Below, piece by piece: positions 21,476 through 64,000 of a stretch of DNA of 64,000 nt. The stretch spans positions 3,833 through 67,832 of the forward strand of contig CAZIPM010000001.1 of the NCBI GenBank assembly GCA_964541395.1, in the 5' to 3' direction. The translations under genes and the position numbers were made by a program. The stretch is from an uncultured Gammaproteobacteria bacterium (GTDB taxonomy: Bacteria; Patescibacteriota; Microgenomatia; UBA8517). The notes under the pieces are model-generated. The model was given only the letters and a program-made list of their open reading frames with translations, searched no databases and had not been told where the DNA came from. Position 1 is the first letter of the stretch, and every line of letters begins with the position of its first letter.

Positions 21476-22117
21476 TTATGTCCGTTTTCTCCAAATGTCA
21501 ATATTTTTATGATTACCCGTAAGAAGAATTTCAGGTACTCCCCATTTTTTATAAAGTGGAGGTCTGGTGTATTGGGGATACTCAGTCTCAATCTCTTCCA
21601 TGGAATGTGACTCTTCCAGAAGCGATTCTTTTTTAATAACTCCAGGGATCAAACGTGTTACGGTGTCAGTTATCACCATTGCAGGAATTTCACCACCTGT
21701 TAGAACATAATCTCCTATGGATATAATCTCATCAACTATATGGTCATGAACCCTGTGATCAATTCCTTCATAATGGCCACAAATAAGAACCAAGCGTTTT
21801 AAGCTTGAATACTCATATGCTTTTTTTTGAGTAAACTTCTCTCCTCCTGCATCCAAAAGTATTATTTTACTGTTTTTGGATTTTGGTTTTGCTTTAATGG
21901 AAGTTAAGGCATTATCTATGACATCGATTCTTAAAATCATTCCCGCACCACCTCCATATGGCCTGTCGTCAACTGTTTTTCTTTCGGTAATCCCAAATTG
22001 TCTTAAGTCATGAAAGTTAATTTCTACTAAACCTTTTTCTTTTGCCTTTTTTAAAATTGACATGTCAAATGGACCGCTAAACATGTCAGGAAAGAGGGTA
22101 ATAATATCAACGATCAT
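21476..22117 (-). CDS. trmD: tRNA (guanine37-N1)-methyltransferase
   Basis: MIVDIITLFPDMF...RPYGGGAGMIL...LICGHYEGIDHRV...GDYVLTGGEIPAMV: canonical TrmD SPOUT motifs. Confidence 0.9.
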   Translation of the reverse strand: MIVDIITLFPDMFSGPFDMSILKKAKEKGLVEINFHDLRQFGITERKTVDDRPYGGGAGMILRIDVIDNALTSIKAKPKSKNSKIILLDAGGEKFTQKKAYEYSSLKRLVLICGHYEGIDHRVHDHIVDEIISIGDYVLTGGEIPAMVITDTVTRLIPGVIKKESLLEESHSMEEIETEYPQYTRPPLYKKWGVPEILLTGNHKNIDIWRKRT

Positions 22118-22217
22118 AGACTGTATTTTAACATAGTAAACATCGATTTATTAGAAATATCAAAGTAATTGATTCCCCATATTGTTTTCTTTATATATTA
22201 AGTGTTTAATTAGGAAT

Positions 22218-23372
22218 ATGGACAAAGTTATTATTGTTATGCCCGCCTACAATGAGGCTGATAATATTGGCAAAATGATTGAGGTTTTATTTGAAGTAGA
22301 ATTTCCCAAAATAAAAGGTGTTGAAATGCATCTTTTTGTCGTAGATGACAAATCTCCTGATGGAACGGGAGATATTGTTAAAAAATACCAGAGTAAATAT
22401 TCCAAACTTCACCTTCTTCAAAAAGATAAGTCGGGATTGGGTTATGCTTATATCGCAGGATTTAAAAGGGCAATGGAAACATTAAAAGCCGATGCGGTTA
22501 TGGAAATGGATGCAGACTTTCAGCACCCACCAAGATTTGTCAAACCGATGGTTGAAGCATATCTAGCTGGTGCCGACTATGTTATAGGTAGCAGATATAT
22601 CAAAGGAGGATCTGTTCCTAAAGAATGGGCACTTTTCAGAAAAGCGATCAGTTATTTCGGCAATTTGTTTATTAGAATAGTTCTATTAAAGCCAAAATTG
22701 CATGATTTAACTACGGGCTTCAGACTTACCAGAGTTAAGGGAGTATTAGATCAAATTGATCTCAATAAACTAATGGAACCTGAAAGATTTGCATACAAAG
22801 TCGACCTTTTGTACAAGTCAATTAAAAACTCGAAAAAAGTTGTGGAGGTTCCTCTTGAGTTTGCTTCAAGAACAAAGGAAAAATCTAAATTTAATCCCAA
22901 AGAAATGGTCTCCACTTTCAAAGTAGCAATAATCTTGGGAATTAAAGACAAACAAAAAATAATTAAATTTGGAATAGTAGGCTTTACTGGATATCTTATA
23001 AATGCTTTCTTTTTAAATTTCTTTTCAAAATCAGGATTCCCAGAATGGTCATCTTGGGCACTCTCAACTGAACTGGCAATAGTCAACAATTTTACTTGGA
23101 ACAATTTATGGACCTTTAAAACTGATGAGATAAAAGGAATTGCTAATGTAATTAAAAAATTCCTACAGTTTAACTTGACATCAGCTGGCGCTCTTCTGAT
23201 ACAAACAGTTCTTGGAACTTTGGGAGTATATTTCTTCGGTTCTACATCAAGACAACTACTTCTTCCTTTCATAATTCTCTTTGTTGTTCTTCCATATAAC
23301 TATTTTATGTACACCAAAGTGATTTGGAAGAATAAATCGAAACCTGCAGTAAATCCTTCGATAGCCAAGTAA
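22218..23372 (+). CDS. GT2 polyprenyl-phosphate glycosyltransferase (Dpm1/ArnC/GtrB-like) fused to a C-terminal GtrA-like 4-TM domain
   Basis: MDKVIIVMPAYNEADNI...VVDDKSPDGTGDI...MDADFQHPP (GT2 DxD). The C-terminal third is hydrophobic (GtrA-like). I chose the ATG at 22218 with AGGAA upstream over the track's TTG at 22182. Confidence 0.7.
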   Translation: MDKVIIVMPAYNEADNIGKMIEVLFEVEFPKIKGVEMHLFVVDDKSPDGTGDIVKKYQSKYSKLHLLQKDKSGLGYAYIAGFKRAMETLKADAVMEMDADFQHPPRFVKPMVEAYLAGADYVIGSRYIKGGSVPKEWALFRKAISYFGNLFIRIVLLKPKLHDLTTGFRLTRVKGVLDQIDLNKLMEPERFAYKVDLLYKSIKNSKKVVEVPLEFASRTKEKSKFNPKEMVSTFKVAIILGIKDKQKIIKFGIVGFTGYLINAFFLNFFSKSGFPEWSSWALSTELAIVNNFTWNNLWTFKTDEIKGIANVIKKFLQFNLTSAGALLIQTVLGTLGVYFFGSTSRQLLLPFIILFVVLPYNYFMYTKVIWKNKSKPAVNPSIAK

Positions 23373-23378
23373 AAAAAT

Positions 23379-24212: not shown

Positions 24213-24416
24213 ACTTACTTCAAACATTCCATCCGATAACTTTCTTACTTCAAATGCCGATAACCCTCTTCTCCTCCTATTCAATTCTTCCAATTGTTCT
24301 CCGTTCAGCAGTACTCCATTATCGGTCTGGTCTGCCCAACCAATTTTACCTCCAAGATTAACCTGTATATAACTTTCTTCTGCTTTGAAAATTTCCCTTA
24401 ACATAGATAAATTCAT
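24165..24416 (-). CDS. hypothetical ORF; distal half of a reading frame interrupted by an in-frame TAA (see findings)
   Basis: It is in the same frame as 24423..24638, separated only by TAA plus two sense codons. It overlaps the 3' end of 23379..24212 by 48 nt. Confidence 0.2.
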   Translation of the reverse strand: MNLSMLREIFKAEESYIQVNLGGKIGWADQTDNGVLLNGEQLEELNRRRRGLSAFEVRKLSDGMFEVSLSPDLQQGKINITGF

Positions 24417-24422
24417 AATTTG

Positions 24423-24638: not shown

Positions 24639-24687
24639 GAGAATATATTGTGAAGCAATTTAACTTTCAAACCCTATCAGGCTAACG

Positions 24688-25845
24688 TTATAAAAATGGA
24701 GCCCAATTGGATATTGGCATGGCATTTTGGGAGATAAAAGCCAAGGCAAAAAGATAAATAGGAATAATTGCAACTCCTAAGGCAATTTTAAATTCCTTGG
24801 AATTAATTAAATCTTTAAAGGCCAATATTAAAAGAGGCGTGATAGGTAAAGCATATCTAAGTAAATCCCTATGAGCAACAAAAAGAAGCGAGATGAAATA
24901 AACAAGTGAGTAATAGTAGAATGTGTCTTGATTTTGGACTTTAAGTTTATAAATTCCTATTGCACCAATGATATATAAAAAAATAATTTCTTCCAGCCAG
25001 AATGTTCCTACCCAAGGTGCTGAAAAGTTGAAAATTTGAAATGGCGGGAAGAAAAGATGAATATTGTCTCCGGATTTAAAATACACCCAGAAGTCACCCA
25101 TTCTAATCGAGTAAAAAATAAAAACAAATATAACCCCGATAGGAATTAATAAAAGAGGATAAACTTTTTTCAAATCTAATTTGCTTAAAAATTGTCTGGT
25201 TTTATTGGTTGCCAAATCCTTTAAATTGGGAAGAAATACTGATGCTCCGTAAGCCACAAACAAAAGAATTCCAGGTGATTTTGTCATAGCGGAAAGAGCT
25301 CCAAATATCCCTGCCCAGATGTATTTTTTTTGATTAAAGAAATAAATTGAAGTCAGTGTAAGGGCGATAAAGAGCGGCTCTGCTGATCCCACAGACCTGA
25401 CAATAAGCCATCTTGCAGGGAATAATGCAAAGACTAGAGTCATCCATAATGCATTTTCTTTATCCAAGGACTCTGCCAGTTTATAGAAGATAAAAAGTGC
25501 AAAGAATGAAGATATCACGGTTACGAAGAGCATAGAATAAGGAAATCCAAAAATAGCTGCAAAGAATTTAATCAGAACCGGGAAAAGTGGAAAATGTGCT
25601 GAATAATATTCATTTGAAAGGGGAAATTGGTAGTTGGATCCTATTTCAATGGGGTTGTAAAGTGTTTTGGCAGCCACCAAGTAGAGAGGTCCGTCATAAT
25701 TGGCAACAACTGTGGCCATTCCTTGACTTGGAATTGGGATTGTCCAAAATGACTTAATCCTACCGAAAAACGGCAACCAAACAAGAAGTGTAGGGATTAT
25801 TGTTAAAAGTAAGATAGGAAGAATGTTTTTAAATTTTTCCTTCAT
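24688..25845 (-). CDS. polytopic membrane protein, putative GT-C-fold glycosyltransferase
   Basis: 385 aa with about 10 predicted TM helices and conserved Arg/Asp in the loops. Divergent from the GT2 gene at 25913. Confidence 0.5.
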   Translation of the reverse strand: MKEKFKNILPILLLTIIPTLLVWLPFFGRIKSFWTIPIPSQGMATVVANYDGPLYLVAAKTLYNPIEIGSNYQFPLSNEYYSAHFPLFPVLIKFFAAIFGFPYSMLFVTVISSFFALFIFYKLAESLDKENALWMTLVFALFPARWLIVRSVGSAEPLFIALTLTSIYFFNQKKYIWAGIFGALSAMTKSPGILLFVAYGASVFLPNLKDLATNKTRQFLSKLDLKKVYPLLLIPIGVIFVFIFYSIRMGDFWVYFKSGDNIHLFFPPFQIFNFSAPWVGTFWLEEIIFLYIIGAIGIYKLKVQNQDTFYYYSLVYFISLLFVAHRDLLRYALPITPLLILAFKDLINSKEFKIALGVAIIPIYLFALAFISQNAMPISNWAPFL

Positions 25846-25912
25846 ATTTTGATCATATCACAAGTGAGGCTGTATGTGCGAGTTTCACTGAGACTGTGCT
25901 TATGGTAGACTT

Positions 25913-26632
25913 TTGATAATGGATAAATTTAAAATAGAGTCTTTATCAGTCTTTTTTCCGACATTTAACGAAGAAGAAAGTATAAAATCCACTGTCGAAT
26001 CAGCAAAGGAAATTCTTGAAAAGATAGCAAAAAACTGGGAAATTTTAATTATTAATGACGGCTCGAAAGATTCAACGGGAGGAATTGCAGATAATCTTGC
26101 AAAAACAGATTCGAGGATAAAGCATATTAAACATGTTGTGAACAGAGGATATGGTGCTGCTTTTAAATCAGGTTTTTATTCAGCTCAATATCCTTGGATA
26201 GCTTTTACTGATTCTGACGGGCAGTTTGTTTTTTCTGAAGTTGAAAACTTTATCGAGAAACAAAAAAATACAGGAGCTGATCTTGTTATCGGTTATTATA
26301 AAAAAAGACAAGTATCCCGATTTAAAATTATAACCAGCAGACTTTGGGAACTTGCAGTAATGATACTTTTTGGTTTATATGTTCACGATATTGATTGTGG
26401 TTTTAAGTTAGTCAACAAGAAAGTGATTGAGGGAATAGAAAAATTAGAGTCAGAAAGGGGAGCATTTATTTCCAGTGAATTTTTAATTAAAGCCAAGAAA
26501 AAAGGATTTAAGATTGTCGAAGTACCGGTGACCCATTTACCACGTACCAAAGGAAAAGGCACAGGCAGACATATCAGAGTAATAATTCAAAGTTTTGTTG
26601 ACCTGTTTAAGTTGTGGAGAAAATTATTATGA
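25913..26632 (+). CDS. GT2 glycosyltransferase (Dpm1-like polyprenyl-phosphate sugar synthase)
   Basis: LSVFFPTFNEEESI...IINDGSKDSTGGI...FTDSDGQF (DxD). Confidence 0.7.
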   Translation: MIMDKFKIESLSVFFPTFNEEESIKSTVESAKEILEKIAKNWEILIINDGSKDSTGGIADNLAKTDSRIKHIKHVVNRGYGAAFKSGFYSAQYPWIAFTDSDGQFVFSEVENFIEKQKNTGADLVIGYYKKRQVSRFKIITSRLWELAVMILFGLYVHDIDCGFKLVNKKVIEGIEKLESERGAFISSEFLIKAKKKGFKIVEVPVTHLPRTKGKGTGRHIRVIIQSFVDLFKLWRKLL

Positions 26633-28113
26633 TCAAAAAAGCCGGGCAAAATAAAATAATAACTTTTATCAAAAACAACTGGCCGTTGCTCATAATTTTA
26701 TTAATAGGAGCATTTTTGCGGCTTTATAGAATAGGGGAGTATATGACTTTTTTAGGAGATGAAGGCAGAGATGCAATTATAGTCAGAAGGTTATTGGTTT
26801 ATGGAGATCCGATACTAATAGGACCAGGCACTTCTGTCGGGAGTATGTATTTGGGTCCTTTATATTACTATTTTATGGCTCCTTTTCTTTTTCTGTCTAA
26901 TTTTTCTCCCATTGGGCCCGCTATCGGAGTTACTTTGTTGGGAGTAGCCACAATATATCTGGTTTATCTTTCCGGTAAAAACTGGTTTTCAAAAAAAGTT
27001 GGGTTAATCTCTGCCGTTCTTTTTGCCACAGCACCCGTGGTTATTATTTATTCCAGATCTTCCTGGAATCCAAACATCATGCCTTTTTTTGCACTCTTAT
27101 CTATTTATTCAATTTGGAAAGTATTTAAAGAAAAAAAGTATAAATGGCTTTTAATTACTGCTGTTTCATTTGCCTTTGTAATGCAGTCACACTACTTAGG
27201 TCTACTTCTGGCGCCTGTTCTTATTGTTTTTTGGTTATTAGCCAAAGTACCTTTAAAATATACTTTTTTTTCGTTGGCTCTATTTTTATTTCTAATGTCA
27301 CCACTATTAATTTTTGATATTCGTCACAATTACATCAATACAAATGCTTTATATAAATTTTTTACAGTCAGACAAGAAACAATTTCCATACGACCTTGGA
27401 ACGCAATTCCGAAAAGTTATCCCATTTTCGAACAAATAAACACAAGCTTATTATCTGCGAATAACCTACTGGTAGGTAAATATATAACAATTGCAATTAC
27501 CCTTTTTATTATTTGGGTTTTTGCCTTCAAAAAGAAAAATATTTTGGGTCCTAATTACTATTTACTTATATTATGGTTGGCATTTTCTTTGATTGGTTTT
27601 GGACTGTATAAACAACACATCTATGATCACTATTTCGGATTTCTTTTTCCTGTATCGTTTATTTTAACGGCACTTTTATTGCAGGAAATATTAAAAAGTA
27701 AATTAAAATATATAGGTACAATTGCACTTTTATTTTTAGTTTTCAATAATTTATCAAAAAGTCCCATCAGATCTAGTCCCAATAAACAGATGCAAAGAGC
27801 AGAAATGGTGGCTGAAAAAATAAAGATAGAATCAAATGGAGAACCTCTTAATTTGGCTGTTTTGGCAGAGAGAAACTATGAAGACGGTTATCAATATTTT
27901 TTGGAAAAAGACAATGTTAAAGTTGTGGAAATTGATGCCCAGATAGAGGAAAGTGTCGTGGATCAGTTGTTTGTTGCCTGTGAACTATCGCTTGAAAAAT
28001 GCGACCCAACTCATTCTCCCAAAACTGAAGTTGCCAATTTCGGTTGGAGTAAAATCGAAAATCAATGGGAGGTAGATGGAGTATTTGTCTTTAAACTGAT
28101 ACACTCACAATAA
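26614..28113 (+). CDS. GT-C family membrane glycosyltransferase (PMT_2/ArnT-like), subfamily A
   Basis: The N-terminus LRLYRIGEYMTFLGDEGRDAIIVRRLLVYGDPILIGPGTSVGSMYLGPLYYY is shared with 29098 and 33605. Multi-TM. Confidence 0.6.
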   Translation: MEKIIMIKKAGQNKIITFIKNNWPLLIILLIGAFLRLYRIGEYMTFLGDEGRDAIIVRRLLVYGDPILIGPGTSVGSMYLGPLYYYFMAPFLFLSNFSPIGPAIGVTLLGVATIYLVYLSGKNWFSKKVGLISAVLFATAPVVIIYSRSSWNPNIMPFFALLSIYSIWKVFKEKKYKWLLITAVSFAFVMQSHYLGLLLAPVLIVFWLLAKVPLKYTFFSLALFLFLMSPLLIFDIRHNYINTNALYKFFTVRQETISIRPWNAIPKSYPIFEQINTSLLSANNLLVGKYITIAITLFIIWVFAFKKKNILGPNYYLLILWLAFSLIGFGLYKQHIYDHYFGFLFPVSFILTALLLQEILKSKLKYIGTIALLFLVFNNLSKSPIRSSPNKQMQRAEMVAEKIKIESNGEPLNLAVLAERNYEDGYQYFLEKDNVKVVEIDAQIEESVVDQLFVACELSLEKCDPTHSPKTEVANFGWSKIENQWEVDGVFVFKLIHSQ

Positions 28114-46428: not shown

Positions 46429-46436
46429 AAATAAAT

Positions 46437-52955: not shown

Positions 52956-52959
52956 GTAT

Positions 52960-56233: not shown

Positions 56234-57483
56234 TGAAAAAATTCTTTTTGATTGTAATTTTTGCTTTAGTATTTAGATTAGTCCTCTCTTTTATCGTTTG
56301 GCATCCGGATCTTAATAATCATTCGGATTGGGGAATTAGGTTTTTTGAATATAGAGCATCAAGGTTTTATTCACCTGAGACTAATGTCTGGAGTTTTACC
56401 TGGCCTAATCAGCCTCCCGGATCAATTTATATGTTTGCTGGTGTCAGGAAATTGTTTGAATTTGTATTTAATGTATTCTGGCTGATAAACGTTAAAATTC
56501 CAGCTTTTCCTTCAATAATTGTTTCCTACTTCGAAACTAATTTATATCCAGCCCTTTTAAAACTACCCGCAATACTTTCCGACTTTGGAATTGCTTATTT
56601 AATTTACAAGATGTGTGGTAAAAAATGGGCTAGTGTTGTTTGGCTTCTAAATCCTTTAGTTTGGTACAATTCCGCAGTTTGGGGGCAATATGATGCGGTA
56701 ATAAATTTCCTGGCACTTTTGTCATTTTATTTACTAACCAAAAAGAAATTGATTTTAGGTGCACTTTTTCTTGCTCTAAGTCTTTTTACCAAAGCCTCCC
56801 TTTTGATATTTGCACCAATTTGGATAATTTATTCACTAACTCAAAAATACAAAACCTCCGAATTCGTTAAAGCATTGACAATAACTTTAATTGTTATAGT
56901 TTTACTGACACTTCCTTTTTCCAACGGAAATCCAATTATTTGGCTTTATGAGCTTTATCAAAAGAAAGTGTTTACGCAACAACTTCATGTAATTACCGCT
57001 AATGCCTTTAATTTATGGGCAGGAGTAGCGGGCATCCATGAACGACCTGACACGCTTCCGTTTCTTGGTTTAACTTATCAACTGTGGGGTTATATTCTTT
57101 TTGCTTTGGTATATATTCCGTTACTGTTCCGTGTAGCCAAGAACGATAATGTAAAAACACTAGTTTGGATGTTGGCTCTTGCTGCATTTGCCAGTTTTAC
57201 TCTCTTAACAAATATGCATGAAAGATATCTTTATCCACTTTTCCCATACTTAACAATTCTTTTAGGATTGGGTTTGGTTAAGCATTGGTATTACTGGCTG
57301 ATTACCATAATTAGTTTATTGGGGATGTATAATTTTTGGTTTACACCGAAAATAGATACGATTATAAATTTTCTTTCTTTTGGAGATAGGCTTACACCAA
57401 GAGTTTTAGGATTTGTACTTACGATTATGTTTTTCTATTTAGTTTCTTTGGGATTGGTTTCAAAACCGCGTAAAATTACCTGA
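56233..57483 (+). CDS. polytopic membrane protein, DUF2029/GT87-like mannosyltransferase family (GT-C)
   Basis: 416 aa, about 10 TM helices, N-terminal loop ...HPDLNNHSDWGIRF.... TAATG overlap with the upstream gene. Confidence 0.5.
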   Translation: MKKFFLIVIFALVFRLVLSFIVWHPDLNNHSDWGIRFFEYRASRFYSPETNVWSFTWPNQPPGSIYMFAGVRKLFEFVFNVFWLINVKIPAFPSIIVSYFETNLYPALLKLPAILSDFGIAYLIYKMCGKKWASVVWLLNPLVWYNSAVWGQYDAVINFLALLSFYLLTKKKLILGALFLALSLFTKASLLIFAPIWIIYSLTQKYKTSEFVKALTITLIVIVLLTLPFSNGNPIIWLYELYQKKVFTQQLHVITANAFNLWAGVAGIHERPDTLPFLGLTYQLWGYILFALVYIPLLFRVAKNDNVKTLVWMLALAAFASFTLLTNMHERYLYPLFPYLTILLGLGLVKHWYYWLITIISLLGMYNFWFTPKIDTIINFLSFGDRLTPRVLGFVLTIMFFYLVSLGLVSKPRKIT

Positions 57484-59117
57484 CCATCGGAGTCGTTAAC
57501 CTCAAAAACTTTTGTTAAATTATGAAGCGCCACTTCATTGTCTGAAATGGTGACAGTGTCTCCTACTAAAACAACTTTTCGGTAGTTTGTTTCCCCCCAC
57601 TCTATTGGTCTGAATTCAAGGTTGTTAAAATTATGGGTAAAGTTAAATTTCTTATCATAATAATAATTTTTAACAATATCTTTATCTTGGTCTTTTTGCA
57701 AAATTTGCGGAGGTATTTTCAGGTAGAATGCCATTTGGATATAGGCGATGTCTTGTGGTTTTACCCTTTTTGTCTGGTCTATAATAAAAGTCTGGTTTGG
57801 GTGATCTTTAATATACTGAGCCAGTTGTGGATACTGAATTCCCCAAACATATTTTTTTTGATTTGGAAGAAAATTAAAATATGATCTGTAGAAAACTATT
57901 AATGAAAACATGAGTACTAACAGAACAGTTGGAATAACAAATTTATTTGGTCTTTTCAGGATCATTTTATCAATACCTACTGCTATCAGAAAAGAGACGG
58001 GAAGAAGCAGGGAATATGTTCTTTGGATATGAAACGGGTCTTGTGTTAATGCTCCTGTTAATGGGGTTATTAAAAACAGTGTCAATAAAAAAATACTAAT
58101 TTCTGATTTTTTGTTCTTAATTATTAAATAAAGACCTGTAAGATAAGGAATAATCATCCAGGAATAAAAAACGGAAAGATTCGGTATAGACCTTTGAGGA
58201 TCCGGGTCAGGTAGAAAAAACAAAGATCGGGGAGACAAATAAGTTATGTATTTTGCCAGGAAGTCTCTGGTGAAAGCAAGAATTACTGAAATTTGATAAG
58301 GTAAATAATTTTGCAATTTATCTATTTGATCGACTGAAATGTTGGATAGTAGATAATTGGATTTAGTATAAAAAGATGGTGTGGTGGCCATAAAAAGATT
58401 AGGGATCTGGATAATTGCAGCAATTATAAATCCAAGAACAATATGTCTTATATCTTTTTTAAAATTAATCTTTTTAAAAAATATAAACAAAAATGCAATT
58501 AAAAGTAAGGGACTGATAATTTTTTGTGAATAATCTGTGTATGTAGCCAGTGATATTAAAGGTAAAGACAACATAAAAAGTTTATTATTGGATATGGACT
58601 TCAAAAGCATTAAGACACAGGTTATAAAAAAGAGAAAAGCTAAGTTTTGTTCATAGCCTATACGACTGAAAAATATAAGCCAGGGAGTAATGGCGAAAAA
58701 TAAGGTGGATATGAATAAAGTGTATTTGGATTTAAAAATATTAAGCTCTTTAAGTAGAAAATAGTAAATATATATCGATGCAACACCACACAATACAGAT
58801 AAGAATCTTGCCGAAAACACGTTCAATCCTAAAAGAGCAATTATAGGTACATTAAAATATATGTATAATGGCGGCGTGTAAGACCCGAAAAGTTTGAACG
58901 CCATAGGGAATGCTTTACCATACTCATCTTTACCTGTCATTAAGATTGAATAGCTGTTATAGGCACTTCCTGCTTCATCGATATACAGACCCGGTGGATT
59001 ACTGTCAAGTCTAAACATATAAATGAAAGCTCCCAAGAAAATTATAGCCAGAAGAATAGTGCCTTTAAGATATTTAGATTTAATCAGTCGATTATATAAT
59101 TGATTTAGCATAGGCAA
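57435..59117 (-). CDS. GT-C family membrane glycosyltransferase (PMT_2/ArnT-like), subfamily B
   Basis: FRLDSNPPGLYIDEAGSAYNSYSILMTGKDEYGKAFPMAFKLFGSYTPPLYIY. Confidence 0.65.
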   Translation of the reverse strand: MPMLNQLYNRLIKSKYLKGTILLAIIFLGAFIYMFRLDSNPPGLYIDEAGSAYNSYSILMTGKDEYGKAFPMAFKLFGSYTPPLYIYFNVPIIALLGLNVFSARFLSVLCGVASIYIYYFLLKELNIFKSKYTLFISTLFFAITPWLIFFSRIGYEQNLAFLFFITCVLMLLKSISNNKLFMLSLPLISLATYTDYSQKIISPLLLIAFLFIFFKKINFKKDIRHIVLGFIIAAIIQIPNLFMATTPSFYTKSNYLLSNISVDQIDKLQNYLPYQISVILAFTRDFLAKYITYLSPRSLFFLPDPDPQRSIPNLSVFYSWMIIPYLTGLYLIIKNKKSEISIFLLTLFLITPLTGALTQDPFHIQRTYSLLLPVSFLIAVGIDKMILKRPNKFVIPTVLLVLMFSLIVFYRSYFNFLPNQKKYVWGIQYPQLAQYIKDHPNQTFIIDQTKRVKPQDIAYIQMAFYLKIPPQILQKDQDKDIVKNYYYDKKFNFTHNFNNLEFRPIEWGETNYRKVVLVGDTVTISDNEVALHNLTKVFEVNDSDGQVILRGFETNPKETK

Positions 59118-59766
59118 TTGATTGAATTAAAGAAAAAACAAACAAAAGCAAAAAAGGGATTATAAATTTCTTGTTTTCTATTACTTTTAATGTCCCAAGA
59201 TAAATAAGGATTACCATTAAAGGAAACAGGGTAAAAGGACCGAGGGGGTTATTGTTTCCGATAACACTAAGAAGAATAATCGGAGAAAGTGCTGTCAATA
59301 AAGCAATTATATGATCCTTCTTTACTTGGAAGATACCGATTAGAAAGAGGGGTAGTAAACCATAGGGAAATTTTTCAAATTCCTGAAACCAAAATCTGCC
59401 TCTGGGGAAATTTGAAAAGAAAAACAGATTTAGATCAAATACTTCAGAAAAGTTAAATTTTATTTTATTAAAAGTCGTATCATAAAGATTCAAGATAAAT
59501 TGTTTGATGAAGTTTATTCCAAATCCGTTTAATTTAGGAAATGTTAAATCACTCATAATAGTGGTTTTTATTTGCAGCAATAACGCTATAAGAAAAACTA
59601 CTCTTAATAAGTTTTGGTATTTATTGGTATTTTTTTGAAATGTAAGCCATAAAAGAAAGGTAGCCAAAATTGTTAAAAATGCTATATAGAAATTATCGCT
59701 AAAAAGTTTCCAAATCCAGAGATTTGAGAACAGGGAAAATATCAAAATCAGGGACTTTTTAATCAT
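59092..59766 (-). CDS. GT-C-associated accessory membrane protein of about 220 aa (paralog of 61274..61870)
   Basis: ...NFPRGRFWFQEFEKFPYGLLPLFLIGIFQVKKDHIIALLTALSPIILLSVIG aligns with ...FMPRSYFQAGDGTKFSPKGVEPIAGILFPFWIMGLISIIKDKYFKPLYLVLGTSLFAFLLG of 61274. Confidence 0.45.
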   Translation of the reverse strand: MIKKSLILIFSLFSNLWIWKLFSDNFYIAFLTILATFLLWLTFQKNTNKYQNLLRVVFLIALLLQIKTTIMSDLTFPKLNGFGINFIKQFILNLYDTTFNKIKFNFSEVFDLNLFFFSNFPRGRFWFQEFEKFPYGLLPLFLIGIFQVKKDHIIALLTALSPIILLSVIGNNNPLGPFTLFPLMVILIYLGTLKVIENKKFIIPFLLLFVFSLIQSIAYAKSII

Positions 59767-59796
59767 ATCAATATATTAACATTTTTAAGGTATAAT

Positions 59797-61284
59797 TTGG
59801 TTATGTTGAAATCATTAATGACGGTTAAAATTCTTCTTGTTATGGTACTACTCCTGGCTGCAATTCTCAGATTAATAGGTTTAACTCAATATCCGGTAGG
59901 TTTCACTCCTGACGAAGCATCTTTTGGTTATGACGCTTACAGCATTTTGTTGACAGGAAAGGACCAGTGGGGAAATACGCTTCCTTTAATCCTGAAATCA
60001 TTTGGTGATTACAAAGCACCCATCTATGCGTATTTGACAGTTCCTTCCGTCTTTATATTTGGTTTAAACAAATTTGCAGTCAGACTTCCTAACGCCATCT
60101 TGGGTGTACTGGCCGTCTACGTTGTTTATCTTTTGGTAACAAAACTGTTTAAAAACAAAAATATAGGTTTAATTACAGCTTTTCTGGTAGCAATTTCACC
60201 CTGGCATATAATGATGAGCAGAGGTGCTTTTGAGGCTAATCTGATAACTTTATTTATACCGTTGGGGATTTATTTGTATTTACAGGAAAAATACTATCTG
60301 TCCGCAATTACTTTTGGTCTAACCATGTTTACTTATCACACGGGTAAGTTTTTGGCACCATTAATTTTTGTTTTGCTGGTATTTCTTTATCATAAAAATA
60401 TAAAAAAACTTATCAAACCAACAATGGTATTTTTATTTTTTATAGCACTGACTATTTTTACCATTCTAGGAGGAGCAGGGGGTAGAGTTATCGAAAGAAG
60501 TATCACGCAGGGAGCATTGGAAGACGGAGCAAAAGTAAAAATAGAAAATATAAATAATGGAATGAACCCGATTGTGGCACGTTTACTACATAACAAATAC
60601 CAAATTGTAGCCAGCCGCTTTGTCTATAATTATCGTCAATACTTTTCATTAAAATTTTTGCTGTTTGAAGGACCGGCCGAAACCACCTACGGGATGATGA
60701 AAGGTCTGGGTGTATTGACTTATCTTGAGATGTTAGGATTTTTAACCGGTTTATATTTTTTAATAAGATCCAAGAATATTGATCCTAAAATAAAATATTT
60801 GATACTGCTCTGGCTTTTAATTGCACCTGTTCCTGCCAGTTTGGCAACCGGGGTTGGTTATGCAGCCAATCGTTCAGTTTCAATGATACCGGTTATCCAA
60901 GTAATATCAGGATTTGGTTTATTCAATTTAATAGACAAAAGAATTTATCTAAAGTATATTGCATTGATAATAGCCTTAGTAGGATTAACGGTGTTTATCA
61001 AAAAGTACTTAATTGAATCACCAATTACTTCTGCTCAGGGAATGCTTTCGAAGAATTTGATGATTGCAAACGAATATGTTGCCAAGTCAGCGGGAAACGA
61101 TACCGTAATTGTGCCAAGGACTTTATCTGAACCGCAGATTTATATCGCCTTTGTTTCTAAGATGGATCCGAGGTTTTATCAAAATGAGAGTAGAGGTTGG
61201 AATTTTGAGGAATTGGGTGTTAATTGGGTAGATCAAATACCGGAATATAGATTGGGAAAGTATTTATTTAAAAATGAAGAATAA
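59797..61284 (+). CDS. GT-C family membrane glycosyltransferase (PMT_2/ArnT-like), subfamily B
   Basis: LRLIGLTQYPVGFTPDEASFGYDAYSILLTGKDQWGNTLPLILKSFGDYKAPIYAY. The likely ATG is at 59803. Confidence 0.65.
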   Translation: MVMLKSLMTVKILLVMVLLLAAILRLIGLTQYPVGFTPDEASFGYDAYSILLTGKDQWGNTLPLILKSFGDYKAPIYAYLTVPSVFIFGLNKFAVRLPNAILGVLAVYVVYLLVTKLFKNKNIGLITAFLVAISPWHIMMSRGAFEANLITLFIPLGIYLYLQEKYYLSAITFGLTMFTYHTGKFLAPLIFVLLVFLYHKNIKKLIKPTMVFLFFIALTIFTILGGAGGRVIERSITQGALEDGAKVKIENINNGMNPIVARLLHNKYQIVASRFVYNYRQYFSLKFLLFEGPAETTYGMMKGLGVLTYLEMLGFLTGLYFLIRSKNIDPKIKYLILLWLLIAPVPASLATGVGYAANRSVSMIPVIQVISGFGLFNLIDKRIYLKYIALIIALVGLTVFIKKYLIESPITSAQGMLSKNLMIANEYVAKSAGNDTVIVPRTLSEPQIYIAFVSKMDPRFYQNESRGWNFEELGVNWVDQIPEYRLGKYLFKNEE

Positions 61285-61870
61285 TAAATTAATTTTAATA
61301 GTATTTTTATTGACTGCGGGAATCTGGTGGAACTTTTTTAACTTAAAGGAGATGGTGGTTCAATGGTCTCAAGCTCCAGATTATTTTAGTAAGAATATGA
61401 GATCTTTTTTTTCGGATGAAAATCTGATGAAAATTCAGGAAGTCAGATGGAATGCATTCGGGGAAAAAAGAGAAGACAACTTATCCAAAATTTATTACAA
61501 CAAAGGCTATATTTTGGTAGACAATTTCTTTTCCTATGTTAGTTATTTCATGCCCAGATCATATTTCCAAGCAGGAGACGGTACGAAATTTTCACCCAAA
61601 GGAGTGGAACCAATTGCTGGCATTCTCTTTCCATTTTGGATAATGGGATTAATTTCGATAATAAAAGATAAATATTTTAAGCCATTATATTTGGTTCTGG
61701 GGACTTCATTGTTTGCCTTTTTATTAGGACAACGGAATTTAGCTTTCCTTTTCCCTGTGATGTTGGTTTATATTTACATCGCTTCTAAATCTTTAGGTAA
61801 AAAACAATTTATATTTGTTTTGCTCTACACTCTATTTATCATAGGAAGGGTAATATGGCTAAAAAGTTAG
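61274..61870 (+). CDS. GT-C-associated accessory membrane protein of about 200 aa (paralog of 59092..59766)
   Basis: See 59092..59766. It sits between two PMT_2-like genes with overlapping junctions. Confidence 0.45.
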   Translation: MKNNKLILIVFLLTAGIWWNFFNLKEMVVQWSQAPDYFSKNMRSFFSDENLMKIQEVRWNAFGEKREDNLSKIYYNKGYILVDNFFSYVSYFMPRSYFQAGDGTKFSPKGVEPIAGILFPFWIMGLISIIKDKYFKPLYLVLGTSLFAFLLGQRNLAFLFPVMLVYIYIASKSLGKKQFIFVLLYTLFIIGRVIWLKS

Positions 61871-63435
61871 TAATTGTTTTAATATTTTTACTCGCATTCT
61901 TCTTAAGAACCTGGAATTTGTCAAAATATCCTGTTTCTTTGTCAATGGATGAAGCCGCCATCGGATACAATGCCTATTCTATTTTAAAAACAGGTCATGA
62001 CGAATATAAAGAATTCCTACCATTAACATTTAGATCAGCCGGAGACTACAAACCACCTGTTGATTTTTATCTTACAGTACCTTCAATTTTTCTTTTTGGA
62101 TTAACCGAATTCAGTATCCGACTACCTGTTGCATTAGTTGGTTCATTAACAGCTGTTGCCTTTATCTATCTGCTTATTAATTTAGGACTTTCTTTTAAAG
62201 CATCTGCCTTCGGAGGTTTTTGGCTGGCAGTACTTCCTTGGCATATTCATTTTTCCAGGGCATCTTTCGAGGCAGTAACAGCCCTCTTCTTTCTTATATC
62301 CGGTTCAGCACTTTTTATTTCCTGGGTAAAAAACAAAAAAACGTTGTATGCGTTTCTTACAGCCCTATCCTTCGGTTTGTCTGTTTGGTCATATCATGCA
62401 GAGAGACTATTTGTTCCAATGTTGGTTGTCTTTCTTTTTATAATTTTTAAACCAAAAAAGAACCTAGTCATCTTCTTTTTGGTCACGGCAATTCTGGCAA
62501 TTCCGTTTTTAAGATTGGCACTTTTTACTCCGGCAATTAGAGAGAGAGCTTCGTCTACCTCCATCTTAAGAGAGCAGTCATTAGTATTGGGACTGCATAC
62601 CTCAAATTATGAGAATTTTGTTGAAAAAGTATTTGATAATGACATTTATCTTGTTTATAGTCATTGGTTGGGAAAGTATCTTAACTATTTTGATATTCGT
62701 TTCTGGTTTTGGAAAGGCATGCAATTTACCCCACCGGGTTATCCTGATCTGGGACTTCTATATCTTGTTGATTTACCTGTATTTTTACTAGGTTTATATG
62801 TCTTGGTCAGATCAAAAAATAAAAATCTGAAAGCATTATCGGTATTTTGGTTTTTTGCAGGACCGTTTCCTGCATCACTAACAATGAATGAACAACATCC
62901 ATTAAGAGCTTTAACTTGGCTACCCTTTTTTGGAATTGTAGTTGCCATGGGTTTTGAATACATAACCGCTAAATATAAAACTTTTAAAATTTATTTGATT
63001 TATATAGCACTATTTTTGTTTAACTTCATTTACTTTTTTGATATTTATACGCATCAATCTCCAAGATTTTTTTCAGAGTATTGGTCTTACGGATATAAAG
63101 AATCCACAATATATGCTTGTGAAAACAGGGACAAATACGACGAAATAGTTGTTACCGATACTTTCGGAAGTGACGGACCATTAAACACAGGTCTTCCTTA
63201 TCTTTACTGGTTGGTTTATTGTGATTGGGATCGAGACAGTTTTTTAAGTACCGGAAAACATCCGGAAAAACTTAGATTTAGACGACCAAACAAAGAAGAT
63301 TTTTCGGATGGTAAAAAGAAACTGTTAATCGGATCCTCTTGGGATTTTTTGGAAGGCCTGTGTGACAAAGGAAAAATAGTTAAAACAATTTATTATTTAA
63401 ATGGTAAAGAAGGGTTTCTTTTAATAGAACCATGA
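61855..63435 (+). CDS. GT-C family membrane glycosyltransferase (PMT_2/ArnT-like), subfamily B
   Basis: LRTWNLSKYPVSLSMDEAAIGYNAYSILKTGHDEYKEFLPLTFRSAGDYKPPVDFY. Confidence 0.65.
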   Translation: MAKKLVIVLIFLLAFFLRTWNLSKYPVSLSMDEAAIGYNAYSILKTGHDEYKEFLPLTFRSAGDYKPPVDFYLTVPSIFLFGLTEFSIRLPVALVGSLTAVAFIYLLINLGLSFKASAFGGFWLAVLPWHIHFSRASFEAVTALFFLISGSALFISWVKNKKTLYAFLTALSFGLSVWSYHAERLFVPMLVVFLFIIFKPKKNLVIFFLVTAILAIPFLRLALFTPAIRERASSTSILREQSLVLGLHTSNYENFVEKVFDNDIYLVYSHWLGKYLNYFDIRFWFWKGMQFTPPGYPDLGLLYLVDLPVFLLGLYVLVRSKNKNLKALSVFWFFAGPFPASLTMNEQHPLRALTWLPFFGIVVAMGFEYITAKYKTFKIYLIYIALFLFNFIYFFDIYTHQSPRFFSEYWSYGYKESTIYACENRDKYDEIVVTDTFGSDGPLNTGLPYLYWLVYCDWDRDSFLSTGKHPEKLRFRRPNKEDFSDGKKKLLIGSSWDFLEGLCDKGKIVKTIYYLNGKEGFLLIEP

Positions 63436-64000
63436 TCTATCTAATTTTATTTTTAACAATTGTTCTTAGATTTTTATTTACATCGGAAATGCCCCCGTCT
63501 CTTAATTGGGACGAGATAAGTCACGGTTATAATGCTTATTCAATTTTAAAAACAGGTAGTGACGAATGGGGTAATTTTCTACCATCCATCTTTCGGGCAT
63601 ATGGTGATTACAAATTACCTGTTTATATTTACCTGACCTCAATCTCCGAATTATTTTTTGGTCTAACTCCCTTTGCTGTCAGATTACCCAATATACTAGC
63701 GGGGATAGGTACTGTTTATTTTACTTACTTATTGGTTTTAAGACTTTTCAAAGAGAATAAACAACTGGCTCTTTTGTCAGCTTTCCTTGTAGCAGTTGAA
63801 CCGTGGACTTTTTTTATAGGAAGACCTGCGTTTGAAGCCAACTTGGCGTCATTTTTCTTTGTAGCTGCAACTTATTTATTTTTAAAAGGTGTTCAAGAAA
63901 ATAAATCATCTTTACCAAGTATTATTTTGTATGGACTTACGGTCTGGACTTATAATTCATACCGCATTTTTACACCCTTGTTTTTAATTACACTGCATAT
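63432..64000 (+). CDS. GT-C family membrane glycosyltransferase (PMT_2/ArnT-like), subfamily B; 3' end off window
   Basis: ATG at 63432 overlaps the upstream TGA. MIYLILFLTIVLRFLFTSEMPPSLNWDEISHGYNAYSILKTGSDEWGNFLPSIFRAYGDYKLPVYIY. Confidence 0.6.
   Translation, partial: MIYLILFLTIVLRFLFTSEMPPSLNWDEISHGYNAYSILKTGSDEWGNFLPSIFRAYGDYKLPVYIYLTSISELFFGLTPFAVRLPNILAGIGTVYFTYLLVLRLFKENKQLALLSAFLVAVEPWTFFIGRPAFEANLASFFFVAATYLFLKGVQENKSSLPSIILYGLTVWTYNSYRIFTPLFLITLH

Follow-up and report, generated by a model that had tools for sequence, protein, structure and literature searches.

A conserved GT-C-rich gene cluster of Candidatus Woesebacteria that probably builds a large surface glycan

A large surface glycan is the probable product of a conserved cluster dominated by GT-C membrane glycosyltransferases, whose route, to judge by analogy, resembles archaeal and eukaryotic protein glycosylation in its layout. 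The reading preferred here, with a probability of roughly 0.45, is that of a conserved envelope-glycan cluster whose product, a single large defined glycan or a small number of them, is assembled in two topologically distinct stages. The cluster lies in a stretch of 64,000 nucleotides (the window) from a CPR/Patescibacteria bacterium near Candidatus Woesebacteria GW2011_GWF1_31_35 (819-kb genome). About 6% of the DNA of this tiny-genome groundwater bacterium is spent on one conserved GT-C cluster. Within a 42.5-kb span, 16 GT-C genes occupy about 24.4 kb, or 57% (Table 1), and housekeeping genes are scattered among them, namely TrmD at 21476(-), a DHH/DHHA1 protein at 28116, and Ham1 at 37028. 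Locus L001 matches the window at 100% identity and reaches past its end, where further cluster genes follow (two of PMT_2 type, a GtrC-like GT-C, and a GT2), so that the GT-C total rises to 19.

All 16 genes listed in the original prediction as GT-C enzymes proved to be of the GT-C fold. Twelve were recognized by Pfam scans with family thresholds, one by BLASTP, two by structure prediction, and one through its homologs. Matches to PMT_2 or PMT above threshold were obtained for 26614, 29098, 32100, 33605, 42060, 54533, 57435(-), 59797, 61855, and 63432. A simple hydropathy scan gave 7–13 TM helices in the 15 full-length genes and four in the 189 aa of 63432 that precede the window end. One Asp just past TM1 is invariant in the PMT_2-type paralogs (11/11), and it is retained in 39450, which has no Pfam match. 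Pfam scans returned no MIR or PMT_4TMC domain in the window. The PTPS_related protein 35322 aligns with the array profile A1 at an hhalign probability of 96.5%, and the C-terminus of the YfhO protein matches PgfM1 and PgfM2 below threshold. Two small membrane proteins weakly resemble part of the same fold: 59092(-) (hhalign 80% to A1; hmmsearch match at profile positions 183–402) and 61274 (positions 244–400), the latter a conserved neighbor of GT-C genes with a 67% ortholog in L004.

Table 1. Features of the glycan cluster and the adjoining Rml genes (window positions; L numbers denote loci).
Feature	Coordinates	Strand	Evidence
RmlA-like glucose-1-phosphate nucleotidyltransferase (dTDP-rhamnose supply)	11276..12169	+	Pfam NTP_transferase, E 8e-28
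RmlB-like dTDP-glucose 4,6-dehydratase	12238..15219	+	Pfam GDP_Man_Dehyd/Epimerase, two stretches
RmlC, dTDP-4-dehydrorhamnose 3,5-epimerase	19731..20315	+	Pfam dTDP_sugar_isom, E 2e-34
RmlD, dTDP-4-dehydrorhamnose reductase	20312..21217	+	Pfam RmlD_sub_bind, E 2e-43
Polyprenyl-phosphate sugar synthase, archaeal DPMS type	22182..23372	+	Pfam Glycos_transf_2 + GtrA_DPMS_TM; ATG at 22218
GT-C, Gpi18/PMT_2-like	24688..25845	-	8 TM; identified through homologs; widely conserved in Patescibacteria
Short Dpm1/ArnC-like GT2, candidate polyprenyl-phosphate sugar synthase	25913..26632	+	Pfam GT2 E 2e-30
GT-C, PMT_2 type (group A)	26614..28113	+	Pfam PMT_2 E 3e-12, PMT E 7e-8; invariant Asp49 after TM1
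GT-C, PMT_2 type (group A)	29098..30597	+	Pfam PMT_2 E 2e-10; 42% ortholog in L051
Short Dpm1-like GT2, candidate polyprenyl-phosphate sugar synthase	30604..31350	+	Pfam GT2 E 1e-30
GDSL/SGNH esterase or acyl-hydrolase	31360..32079	+	Pfam Lipase_GDSL_2, E 2e-11
GT-C, PMT_2 type (deep branch)	32100..33608	+	Pfam PMT_2 E 4e-9; orthologs 57–61% in L050, L051
GT-C, PMT_2 type (group A)	33605..34993	+	Pfam PMT_2 E 1e-7; 52% ortholog in L050
GT-C, PTPS_related type	35322..37076	+	Pfam PF10131 33.9 bits vs cut-off 26.4; orthologs 61–64%
Wzx/MOP-family flippase	38024..39487	+	Pfam Polysacc_synt_3 E 4e-53; 13 TM
GT-C, divergent PMT_2-array member (group B)	39450..41225	+	BLASTP to 59797 E 1e-17; 55% ortholog in L050
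SAM-dependent methyltransferase	41179..42075	+	Pfam Methyltransf_23, E 3e-23
GT-C, PMT/PMT_2 type (group B)	42060..43673	+	Pfam PMT E 2e-10, PMT_2 E 5e-8
Sequence-orphan GT-C, candidate transferase for flipped lipid-linked glycan	43636..45261	+	ArnT/STT3/AglB-like predicted fold
GT2 (cytoplasmic)	45520..46428	+	Pfam GT2 E 2e-22; best PDB GmaR E 2e-16, SunS E 2e-11
GT2 (cytoplasmic)	46395..47375	+	Pfam GT2 E 2e-18; best PDB GlfT2-type galactofuranosyltransferases E 1.5e-11
GT2-like paralog of 45520	47360..48076	+	BLASTP to 45520 E 3e-25
GT4 (GT-B fold) glycosyltransferase	48052..49110	+	Pfam Glycos_transf_1, E 2e-21
GT-C, YfhO family	49107..51425	+	Pfam YfhO 82.8 bits, E 3e-23
SAM-dependent methyltransferase	51406..52062	+	Pfam Methyltransf_11, E 3e-24
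GT2 (cytoplasmic)	52065..52955	+	Pfam GT2, E 6e-23
GT2 (cytoplasmic)	52918..53802	+	Pfam GT2, E 9e-27
GT-C, PMT_2 type (group B), conserved orthogroup	54533..56233	+	Pfam PMT_2 E 3e-12; orthologs 51–67% in 9 loci
GT-C, ALG6/Gpi18-like class	56233..57483	+	Predicted fold; no Pfam match
GT-C, PMT_2 type (group B), patchy orthogroup	57435..59117	-	Pfam PMT_2 E 1e-6
Small 6-TM protein	59092..59766	-	Weak likeness to C-terminal half of GT-C membrane domain
GT-C, PMT/PMT_2 type (group B), conserved orthogroup	59797..61284	+	Pfam PMT_2 E 5e-10; orthologs 40–64%
Small 4-TM protein	61274..61870	+	Weak likeness to C-terminal half of GT-C membrane domain
GT-C, PMT/PMT_2 type (group B)	61855..63435	+	Pfam PMT, PMT_2; orthologs 71–72% in L004, 53% in L007
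GT-C, PMT/PMT_2 type (group B), cut at window end	63432..64000	+	Pfam

Two of these genes belong near the ALG6/Gpi18 enzymes. The AF2 model of 56233 (pLDDT 86) matches yeast ALG6 in Foldseek (E 2e-6, TM 0.75), and among the best 120 of its 540 homologs (53–86% identity, one sequence identical) some match Alg6_Alg8, PIG-U, ALG3, or GT87. The gene 24688(-) has 2408 homologs, of which the best 120 lie at 59–76% identity, include one identical sequence, and in some cases carry PMT_2 (PF13231). JGI names homologs of 24688(-) 'Gpi18-like mannosyltransferase'; the protein itself matches NF046093 below threshold (E 8e-15) and aligns with A3 at 67% in hhalign.

The whole cluster is collinear across Woesebacteria, with 1:1 orthologs at 40–74% identity and a gene order strictly kept over about 45 kb. 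In a neighbor-joining tree, which carries no support values, the array splits into at least nine orthogroups, several of which have Shapirobacteria sequences at their base. This pattern argues for an old, fixed set of enzymes, whose duplications appear from the tree to predate the split from Shapirobacteria. Variation between genomes is limited to a few members: the YfhO gene, 57435(-)/59092(-), and 39450–42060. At the position of 49107, YfhO is missing in L050, L051, L052, and L054 and present in L053, while 57435(-) has orthologs at 33–39% in L008, L011, and L051 and none in L004. The collinearity and the 1:1 orthologs speak against a strain-specific or combinatorial expansion. The combinatorial or variable decoration that had been read from the paralog count accordingly gives way to fixed orthogroups, and the paralog phylogeny, with its basal Shapirobacteria, likewise points to ancient lineages rather than a variable set.

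The proposed pairing of GT-C enzymes with Dpm1-like polyprenyl-phosphate-sugar synthases agrees with the gene families found, and the three predicted synthases match DPMS, ArnC, and GtrB. The match of 22182/22218 to Pyrococcus furiosus DPMS (5mlz) is full-length (E 2e-47); 25913 has ArnC as its best PDB match (E 3e-17), and 30604, with a 74% ortholog in L051, matches DPMS, GtrB, and ArnC (E 3e-15 to 7e-13). Pfam also confirmed the Wzx flippase, the GT4, both methyltransferases, the GDSL esterase, and YfhO. Six further GT2 genes had been claimed; five lie in the window (45520, 46395, 47360, 52065, and 52918) and the sixth just beyond, with 47360 just below the Pfam GT2 threshold (22.5 vs 23.3 bits). 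The absence of WecA/WbaP and Wzy/ligase noted originally holds in the window and in 5–6 related loci, WaaL/LCP included; Pfam found no Glycos_transf_4, Bac_transf, Wzy, or LCP match in window ORFs of at least 120 aa. The locus thus does not qualify as a classic Wzy-dependent O-antigen cluster.

The original prediction overlooked a conserved module formed by Wzx, five GT2, one GT4, two methyltransferases, and the orphan GT-C 43636. The arrangement 'Wzx, orphan GT-C, GT2 x3, GT4, methyltransferase, GT2, PMT_2' is kept in six genomes, where the 43636 family has as neighbors Wzx and a group of cytoplasmic glycosyltransferases, five or six in number. Wzx directly overlaps the orphan GT-C in three of these six, and one database protein (P0401) is a fusion of Wzx with an orphan GT-C domain. 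Such conservation suggests a lipid-linked oligosaccharide route besides single-sugar additions. Because 43636 is highly conserved and always next to Wzx and cytoplasmic glycosyltransferases, it may, given its modeled fold, be the "missing" transferase or ligase. Its predicted C-terminal domain is AglB-like. ArnT, as Petrou et al. reportedly described in 2016, likewise has an OST-like periplasmic domain, so this feature is not diagnostic. No sequence similarity of 43636 to STT3, AglB, or PglB was found, and the WWDYG motif occurs in 0 of 39 family members.

Beyond the gene families, folds, synteny, and orthology established above, we infer donors, order of steps, and acceptor as follows. At the cytoplasmic face, the five GT2 and one GT4 would assemble an oligosaccharide on a polyprenyl-phosphate carrier, which the two SAM methyltransferases would methylate, while the adjoining Rml genes would provide dTDP-rhamnose among other sugars. 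Since the cluster lacks a WecA/WbaP-type enzyme, initiation would fall to a Dpm1-like GT2 with polyprenyl monophosphate as its substrate, for which Haloferax AglJ is the model, or to an enzyme encoded elsewhere. That the genome may carry a phosphoglycosyl transferase outside the cluster counts against this explanation. Wzx (38024) would then flip the lipid-linked glycan. At the outer face, synthases 22182, 25913, and 30604 would make polyprenyl-phosphate monosaccharides, whose sugars about 15–18 GT-C enzymes would then attach one by one in a set sequence. GT-C orthogroups far outnumber donor synthases, so the main differences among the paralogs would lie in which acceptor they use and which linkage they form, as with ALG3/9/12/6/8/10 of the ER lumen, Haloferax AglS, and the mycobacterial LM/LAM/arabinogalactan GT-Cs. 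Finally, 43636 would move the flipped glycan onto its acceptor. Components of the same classes make up the Agl pathway of Haloferax (AglJ and AglD, AglG/I/E, AglP, AglR, AglB, AglS; PMC3871713), besides the Rml-type Agl11–14 (PMC4022621).

A secreted or surface protein is the favored acceptor and a wall polymer nearly as likely. Wzx and the cytoplasmic glycosyltransferases suit a wall polysaccharide equally well. A somewhat unlikely alternative to the two-stage reading as a whole assigns the same machinery to a wall-linked or lipid-anchored heteropolysaccharide instead of a glycoprotein. The product would then be a secondary cell-wall polymer containing rhamnose, or else a lipoglycan, in the style of mycobacterial LM/LAM/arabinogalactan, lengthened and branched by GT-Cs outside the membrane, with 43636 as polymerase, ligase, or elongating GT-C. 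The adjoining Rml genes fit this proposal, as do the galactan polymerase GlfT2 type of the best solved relative of 46395, the presence of AftA, AftB, AftD, and PimE among structural neighbors of 43636, and the NCBIfam name 'cell surface glycopolymer formation protein' of the family nearest 24688 and 56233. Many fixed orthogroups against few donors would also suit sequential polymer assembly. However, the cluster contains no LCP ligase, Wzy, ABC exporter, or Glf mutase, and the Emb, AftA, and AftB Pfam families found no match. Outside CPR, moreover, PMT_2 relatives number 1–2 per locus examined, and one Firmicutes-type relative glycosylates proteins (PMC6151902).

Direct, stepwise O-glycosylation of different surface proteins by PMT-like enzymes, with paralog number reflecting variable decoration, was the original prediction and is now improbable. 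Its proposed acceptors were sortase-associated repeat proteins and a CAP protein, which adjacency makes candidates. A sortase is encoded at 8341; (PPPAAT)n repeats in 4928 and linkers rich in Pro/Ser/Thr in 7200 and 9943 make these proteins plausible O-glycosylation targets. GT39 of C. bescii glycosylates Thr/Pro linkers (PMC6151902). PMT and PMT_2 matches with a loop-1 Asp-Glu type motif, and the likeness of the YfhO C-terminus to PgfM1 and PgfM2, from the system that glycosylates adhesins in S. mutans, point the same way. Yet the orthogroups and their order stay constant throughout the class, MIR and PMT_4TMC are missing, and the Wzx and cytoplasmic glycosyltransferase module is left unexplained. 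The surface-protein genes also lie at least 11 kb upstream of the cluster behind unrelated genes, their products lack LPXTG, and N-X-S/T sites in them are as frequent as composition predicts. Least probable is that several three-component decoration systems (GtrB-like synthase, flippase, GT-C), modeled on Gtr, CsbB/YfhO, or GacI-L, work independently of one another, each attaching a single sugar to its own pre-existing polymer (peptidoglycan, teichoic-acid-like polymers, pili), and stand together only because of genome streamlining. Three synthases with many GT-C genes, 25913 directly before 26614, 30604 between 29098 and 32100, and the scattered TrmD, DHH, and Ham1 genes, suggestive of loose organization, would accord with it. 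Against this stand the ratio of 16–19 GT-C genes to three synthases, far from one-to-one, the strict gene order, and a window in which no teichoic-acid genes were seen.

A minor observation concerns the RmlB-like gene. It is split by an intein (Pfam Intein_splicing, Hint_2, LAGLIDADG_3) and, as read from the sequence, bears a C-terminal extension of about 300 aa.

The 16 genes that the original prediction listed as membrane glycosyltransferases can all be placed in the GT-C class. Twelve of them pass Pfam thresholds, ten for PMT_2/PMT, 35322 for PTPS_related and 49107 for YfhO, and PF02366 (PMT) is above threshold in 26614, 42060, 59797, 61855 and 63432. The other four (39450, 56233, 24688(-) and 43636) carry no Pfam match. 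BLASTP links 39450 to the array of PMT_2-type paralogs (E 1e-17), whose conserved Asp it retains. For 56233, some of the 540 homologs match Alg6_Alg8, PIG-U, ALG3 or GT87 (the best 120 of the 540 are 53-86% identical), and the AF2 model (pLDDT 86) matches yeast ALG6 with a TM score of 0.75. Structure comparison of 56233 and of the orphan GT-C 43636 returned the GT-C fold for both. The weakest case is 24688(-), which is a probable GT-C through homologs that match PMT_2; the best 120 of its 2,408 homologs are 59-76% identical.

Shared features extend beyond profile matches. A hydropathy scan, which is a crude predictor and not a topology model, gives 7-13 transmembrane (TM) helices in the 15 full-length GT-C genes and four in 63432, truncated to 189 aa by the window end. 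In the alignment, one Asp just after TM1 is invariant across the 11 PMT_2-type paralogs, at the position of the GT-C catalytic acid. Acidic residues after TM1 were also read by eye elsewhere, as HDD in 35322, as an invariant D40 in the family of 43636 and as D26 and D32, both invariant, in that of 56233. The Pfam matches, the tests of the four Pfam-less genes and the shared Asp thus support GT-C identity for 16/16 genes, which together occupy ~57% of the 42.5-kb span. All 11 PMT_2-type paralogs show a DE or DQ motif in loop 1, and no paralog has a MIR or PMT_4TMC Pfam domain. Against solved structures, the array profile matched only ArnT (5ezm), weakly (E 4e-5) and over the N-terminal 185 residues. 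A misreading of unrelated transporters as GT-C enzymes, an outcome that the original prediction had itself envisaged, is rejected because MFS and other transporters appeared in fold searches only at E >0.05. The co-encoded DPMS/ArnC-like synthases, three in number, indirectly support the use of polyprenyl-phosphate or -diphosphate sugar donors by these enzymes.

The expansion appears to be old. Paralogs inside the window are 25-46% identical (BLASTP), whereas orthologs in other genomes reach 40-74%, which excludes a recent or strain-specific paralog expansion. Best-hit analysis recovers 1:1 orthologs in conserved order, with identities of 51-67% for 54533, 40-64% for 59797 and 44-65% for 63432 and the next two genes. 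Between 32100 and 59797, the window and a locus from a genome like GW2011_GWF1_31_35 (L050) are collinear, with identities of 52-74%, and the more distant L051 keeps the same gene order. In 12 of 14 Microgenomates-type loci the array profile detects 4-8 GT-C genes (one to seven in the other two), versus 1-2 per locus outside CPR, in Firmicutes, Chloroflexi, Atribacterota and Methanoperedens. In a midpoint-rooted neighbour-joining tree without support values (128 sequences, 550 columns), the non-CPR homologs form one clade, and the CPR paralogs of group B, a subgroup of the array, form its sister clade. The latter divides into at least nine orthogroups, with Shapirobacteria sequences basal in several; hence, the expansion is best described as ancient and fixed, not variable. 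The idea that the paralog count reflects combinatorial or variable decoration is not supported, since the ortholog set is fixed, collinear and 1:1. Differences between loci are local. The YfhO gene is found in the window and L053 and is absent in L050, L051, L052 and L054. L004 lacks the pair 57435(-)/59092(-), L051 lacks the block 39450-41179-42060, and an extra 56233 paralog occurs in L004 and L050.

Judged by protein similarity, the host of the window is a CPR bacterium of the Woesebacteria lineage. The best public relative of a window GT-C protein (64% identity) belongs to Candidatus Woesebacteria bacterium GW2011_GWF1_31_35, whose genome is complete at 819,458 bp, and the next-best relatives of that protein come from MAGs of other Woesebacteria, Microgenomates and Patescibacteria. 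The window has a GC content of ~33% and no tRNA genes, and contigs with its exact proteins derive from the Rifle aquifer and another metagenome. A contig 100% identical to the window (L001) adds 9.6 kb past its end, where two further PMT_2 genes, one GtrC-like gene (GT_STM0557_N) and another GT2 are encoded. With these the GT-C total rises to 19 and the span to about 48 kb, which would amount to ~6% of the genome if its size is like that of GW2011_GWF1_31_35. Housekeeping genes lie amid the glycosylation genes (see table).

The three Dpm1-like synthases that had been proposed are borne out by PDB sequence matches. The product of 22182 shows a full-length match to archaeal DPMS (E 2e-47), 25913 is nearest to ArnC, and 30604 is nearest to DPMS, GtrB and ArnC. 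Because the DPMS match is full length, the part of 22182 described as GtrA-like corresponds to the DPMS membrane domain and gives no evidence of a separate flippase. GtrA_DPMS_TM occurs in the window only in this context, and no free-standing GtrA, teichoic-acid gene or ABC exporter was found. Pfam confirms the Wzx flippase 38024 (Polysacc_synt_3, E 4e-53), the GT4, both methyltransferases, the GDSL esterase and the YfhO 49107; the further GT2 genes in the window number five, not six as first counted.

The orphan GT-C 43636 defines a family that sequence profiles do not reach. A 39-sequence profile has no Pfam, NCBIfam or PDB sequence match: neither STT3 (PF02516) nor any other Pfam family appears in the 39 members even at E 5, and the PDB search returns none at E 10. 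The family comprises 1,558 representatives at 50% clustering, and the best 120 homologs listed, from Woesebacteria, Microgenomates and Dojkabacteria, are 54-65% identical, with one at 83%. The AF2 model (pLDDT 84, pTM 0.88) is clearly GT-C, with a predicted ~13-TM membrane domain followed by a C-terminal alpha/beta globular domain, as in GT66 oligosaccharyltransferases. Foldseek places STT3, AglB and PglB on top (E 7e-9 to 1e-5), then DPY19 and AftA. Membership in the STT3/PglB family is nevertheless rejected, given the missing Pfam and PDB sequence matches and a WWD-type motif (WWDYG) count of 0/39 members, although the likeness in fold remains. Without this motif, 43636 is not a canonical oligosaccharyltransferase.

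Genomic context is conserved around this gene, which sits in the same module in 6/6 genomes examined. The order is Wzx, 0-3 inserted genes, the orphan GT-C, GT2, GT2, a GT2-like gene, GT4 and further genes. After GT4 come YfhO in some genomes, a methyltransferase in 5/6, a GT2 and at times another GT2, and a PMT_2 gene closes the module where the locus extends far enough. Wzx directly overlaps the orphan GT-C in three of the six genomes. In one database protein (P0401, 1,639 aa), Wzx, an N-terminal domain without Pfam match and the orphan GT-C are joined, a fusion that could be a gene-calling artefact. The adjacency to Wzx and cytoplasmic glycosyltransferases, together with this one fusion, suggests en bloc transfer by 43636 from a lipid-linked oligosaccharide. 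Many family members (among P0363-P0432) reach 1,000-1,160 aa and carry an N-terminal signal anchor plus an extracytoplasmic domain of ~430-590 aa, which has no Pfam match and no relative in the window.

On the observed gene families, folds and synteny we place a tentative model, to which we assign a probability of about 0.45: a two-stage assembly line in which the orphan GT-C serves as the transfer enzyme, and for which we infer the donors, the order of steps and the acceptor. Since cytoplasmic glycosyltransferases co-occur with a MOP-family flippase, an oligosaccharide would be assembled on a lipid carrier by the former and then flipped by the latter. At the outer face, three polyprenyl-phosphate monosaccharide synthases would supply the GT-C enzymes, and sugars would be added singly, as the combination of three synthases and many GT-C enzymes implies. 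The finished glycan would be transferred by 43636. GT-C orthogroups outnumber donor synthases by about six to one, so what distinguishes the paralogs must be their acceptor or linkage and not their donor, a pattern that follows the logic of stepwise elongation. The lack of a WecA/WbaP-type enzyme would be explained as well, since glycan synthesis in Haloferax begins with a Dpm1-like GT2 acting on dolichol monophosphate.

Several characterized systems resemble parts of this architecture. The Haloferax volcanii Agl pathway shares Dpm1-like GT2 enzymes for the loading of polyprenyl phosphate (AglJ, AglD), soluble GT2/GT4 elongators (AglG/I/E), a SAM methyltransferase (AglP), a GT-C taking a sugar from Dol-P-Man and adding it outside the membrane (AglS) and an OST-fold GT-C (AglB) (PMC3871713), along with a Wzx-like flippase (AglR, Agl15) (PMC3871713, PMC4022621) and an Rml set (Agl11-14) (PMC4022621). 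From the cluster side, the likeness to ALG and archaeal systems lies in the ALG6 fold of 56233 and the full-length archaeal DPMS match of 22182. Components of the ER lipid-linked oligosaccharide pathway, namely ALG5/DPM1, Rft1, the lumenal ALG GT-C enzymes and STT3, also match the cluster. In contrast to both, the host here is a bacterium with peptidoglycan, and the OST-fold protein lacks an STT3 Pfam match and the WWDYG motif. The cluster holds 16-19 GT-C genes, whereas the Haloferax pentasaccharide pathway has two and the ALG pathway six lumenal enzymes.

Mycobacterial and corynebacterial assembly of LM, LAM and arabinogalactan (Emb, AftA-D, PimE, MptA-C) uses decaprenyl-phosphate sugars and likewise combines many GT-C paralogs with few lipid-phosphate sugar donors and linkage-specific outer-face enzymes. 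The structural neighbours of 43636 include AftA, AftB, AftD and PimE, and the GT2 46395 has its best solved match among GlfT2-type enzymes. However, GT53, GT85 and GT89 have no match in the cluster, where PMT_2 is the main family; arabinose donor genes of the DprE or UbiA type were not found, and the genome is ~five times smaller. In monoderm bacteria, three-component systems (GtrA/B/C; CsbB-YfhO and GtlA/B acting on teichoic acids; GacI-L acting on streptococcal rhamnose polysaccharide) and S. mutans Pgf combine a GT2 polyprenyl-phosphate sugar synthase with a YfhO/PMT_2-type GT-C. The cluster resembles them in its YfhO, whose C-terminus is like PgfM1/PgfM2, and in the nearby rhamnose genes, but they employ one GT-C per synthase for a single side-chain sugar, against a ratio of about six to one here. 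Bacterial GT39 O-mannosyltransferases (actinobacterial Pmt; C. bescii Cbes_1864) share with the array the PMT/PMT_2 matches, the loop-1 acidic motif and a length of ~500-560 aa. A bacterial genome normally carries one GT39-type gene, whereas the window alone has 11 of the PMT_2 type and the whole cluster 13. Known GT39 targets are Pro/Thr-rich linkers (PMC6151902), and the upstream surface protein 4928 has one.

The flippase would suit a classic Wzy-dependent O-antigen or capsule cluster, but the partners of Wzx are absent: phosphoglycosyl transferase, Wzy, chain-length regulator, ligase and LCP gave 0 matches among window ORFs of at least 120 aa, and phosphoglycosyl transferase, Wzy, Wzz and ligase gave 0 in six related loci (L001, L050-L054). 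The original prediction, which noted no WecA/WbaP, Wzy or ligase, is thus upheld beyond the window, and the complete O-antigen cluster that it named as the competing explanation is rejected for the window and these loci. ArnT-type lipid A modification is rejected too, as its sole link is the weak similarity to 5ezm and no Arn genes (ArnA, B, D, E, F) accompany the ArnC-like GT2 in the window. CPR bacteria are generally described as monoderm.

The acceptor of the proposed assembly line may be a protein or a polysaccharide or lipoglycan. A protein acceptor is favoured by the PMT/PMT_2 relationship of the array, by the weak similarity of the YfhO C-terminus to PgfM1 and PgfM2, and by the nearest solved relatives of 45520, GmaR (a flagellin O-GlcNAc transferase) and SunS (a peptide S-glycosyltransferase). 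One Firmicutes GT39 enzyme glycosylates Thr/Pro linkers (PMC6151902), and candidate Pro/Thr-rich substrates for PMT-type enzymes lie upstream of the cluster, with the (PPPAAT)n stretch that opens 4928 and Pro/Ser/Thr linkers in 7200 and 9943. These upstream surface proteins show no LPXTG sorting signals and no enrichment of N-glycosylation sequons, which occur as often as composition predicts; the sortase is linked to the cluster by adjacency only. For a polysaccharide or lipoglycan speak the adjoining Rml genes, the GlfT2-type galactofuranosyltransferases as nearest solved relatives of 46395, the Aft enzymes and PimE among the structural neighbours of 43636, and the NCBIfam family nearest to 24688 and 56233, named 'cell surface glycopolymer formation protein'. 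The hints from 45520 and 46395 are weak and conflicting. A more far-reaching version, which we regard as unlikely, is that Microgenomates glycosylate proteins in archaeal/eukaryotic style, with a polyprenyl-phosphate glycan made without WecA/WbaP, flipping by Wzx, outer-face extension by at least 12 GT-C enzymes including one of ALG6 fold, and en bloc transfer by the orphan OST-fold GT-C. If true, this orphan family, not recognised before and with ~1,500 clusters at 50% identity, would join PglB and PglL as a third type of bacterial oligosaccharyltransferase, and the GT-C gene density would be the highest known in any genome.

Most CPR bacteria (Patescibacteria) remain uncultured; they are ultra-small, and an attached life on host cells is assumed for many of them, so that their biology plays out at the surface. 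That a ~0.8-Mb genome keeps a cluster of 50 kb or more with 19 GT-C genes intact and collinear across the whole class implies a product essential to this lifestyle, and the glycan could serve in attachment, in defence against grazers or phage, or in the integrity of the envelope. Every component class is already known, and the system is not categorically new. What look new are the scale and conservation of the GT-C array in an ultra-small genome, the three conserved GT-C families (43636, 56233 and 24688) largely missed by current profile libraries, and an Agl/ALG-like architecture in a bacterium. As these three are invisible or nearly so to Pfam yet among the more conserved genes of the system, annotation pipelines undercount it. 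No description of GT-C, mannosyltransferase, oligosaccharyltransferase or glycosyltransferase systems of CPR, Patescibacteria or Microgenomates was found in open-access papers, which is weak evidence of absence, and glycosyltransferases are not mentioned in Meheust 2019. Should the orphan GT-C prove to be an oligosaccharide transferase, it would widen the range of bacterial protein and glycan transferases and provide a new enzyme for glycoengineering. The parts-list match with archaeal and eukaryotic N-glycosylation bears on the spread of pathway modules across the tree of life.

Coordinates of genes in and around the cluster (window positions, except the last line)
Position	Strand	Gene or product	Observation
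3564-4823	+	Repeat surface protein	Asn/Ser/Thr/Gly-rich family, flanks sortase 8341
4928-7213	+	Repeat surface protein	Same family; C-terminal TM helix and basic tail, without LPXTG
7200-8381	+	Repeat surface protein	Same family; C-terminal TM helix and basic tail, without LPXTG
9029-9637	-	Repeat surface protein	Same family
12238-15219	+	RmlB	ORF of 993 aa
15709-17088	+	459-aa protein	No family; in rmlB-rmlC gap
17446-18207	+	NUDIX protein	In rmlB-rmlC gap
18404-19696	+	AAA_14/DUF4143 ATPase	In rmlB-rmlC gap
21476	-	TrmD	Housekeeping
23379-24212	+	Soluble 277-aa protein	Between DPMS-like gene and divergent GT-C 24688(-); no Pfam or NCBIfam match
28116		DHH/DHHA1 protein	Housekeeping
37028		Ham1	Housekeeping
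43636-45261		Orphan GT-C	
45520-47375	+	GT2 genes 45520 and 46395	Nearest solved relatives GmaR and SunS (45520), GlfT2 type (46395)
59092-59766	-	Small membrane protein	6 TM; adjoins GT-C gene
61274-61870	+	Small membrane protein	4 TM; adjoins GT-C gene
18765-21536 (L001)		Shikimate_DH-like protein, two short-chain dehydrogenases, PNPOx-like flavoprotein	After last GT2; followed by an AbiEii-like gene

Some of these neighbours have features of their own. The surface proteins share a repeat unit like 'GNGxDSxN...NTGGxVSIxTG'. An intein carrying a LAGLIDADG homing-endonuclease domain (~aa 121-480) interrupts the RmlB gene, whose product has a C-terminal extension of ~300 aa that contains a degenerate Nudix box, GGFPKINESVFDLIHRKLEDDLGV. 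Past the window end, the Shikimate_DH-like, dehydrogenase and PNPOx-like products are candidates for modifying sugars or lipid-linked sugars. No family could be found for the small membrane proteins 59092(-) and 61274, which are weakly alike (E 8e-4) and both weakly resemble the C-terminal half of a GT-C membrane domain; in L004, conservation of 61274 reaches 67%. The two proteins may represent 'half GT-C' accessory subunits or remnants.
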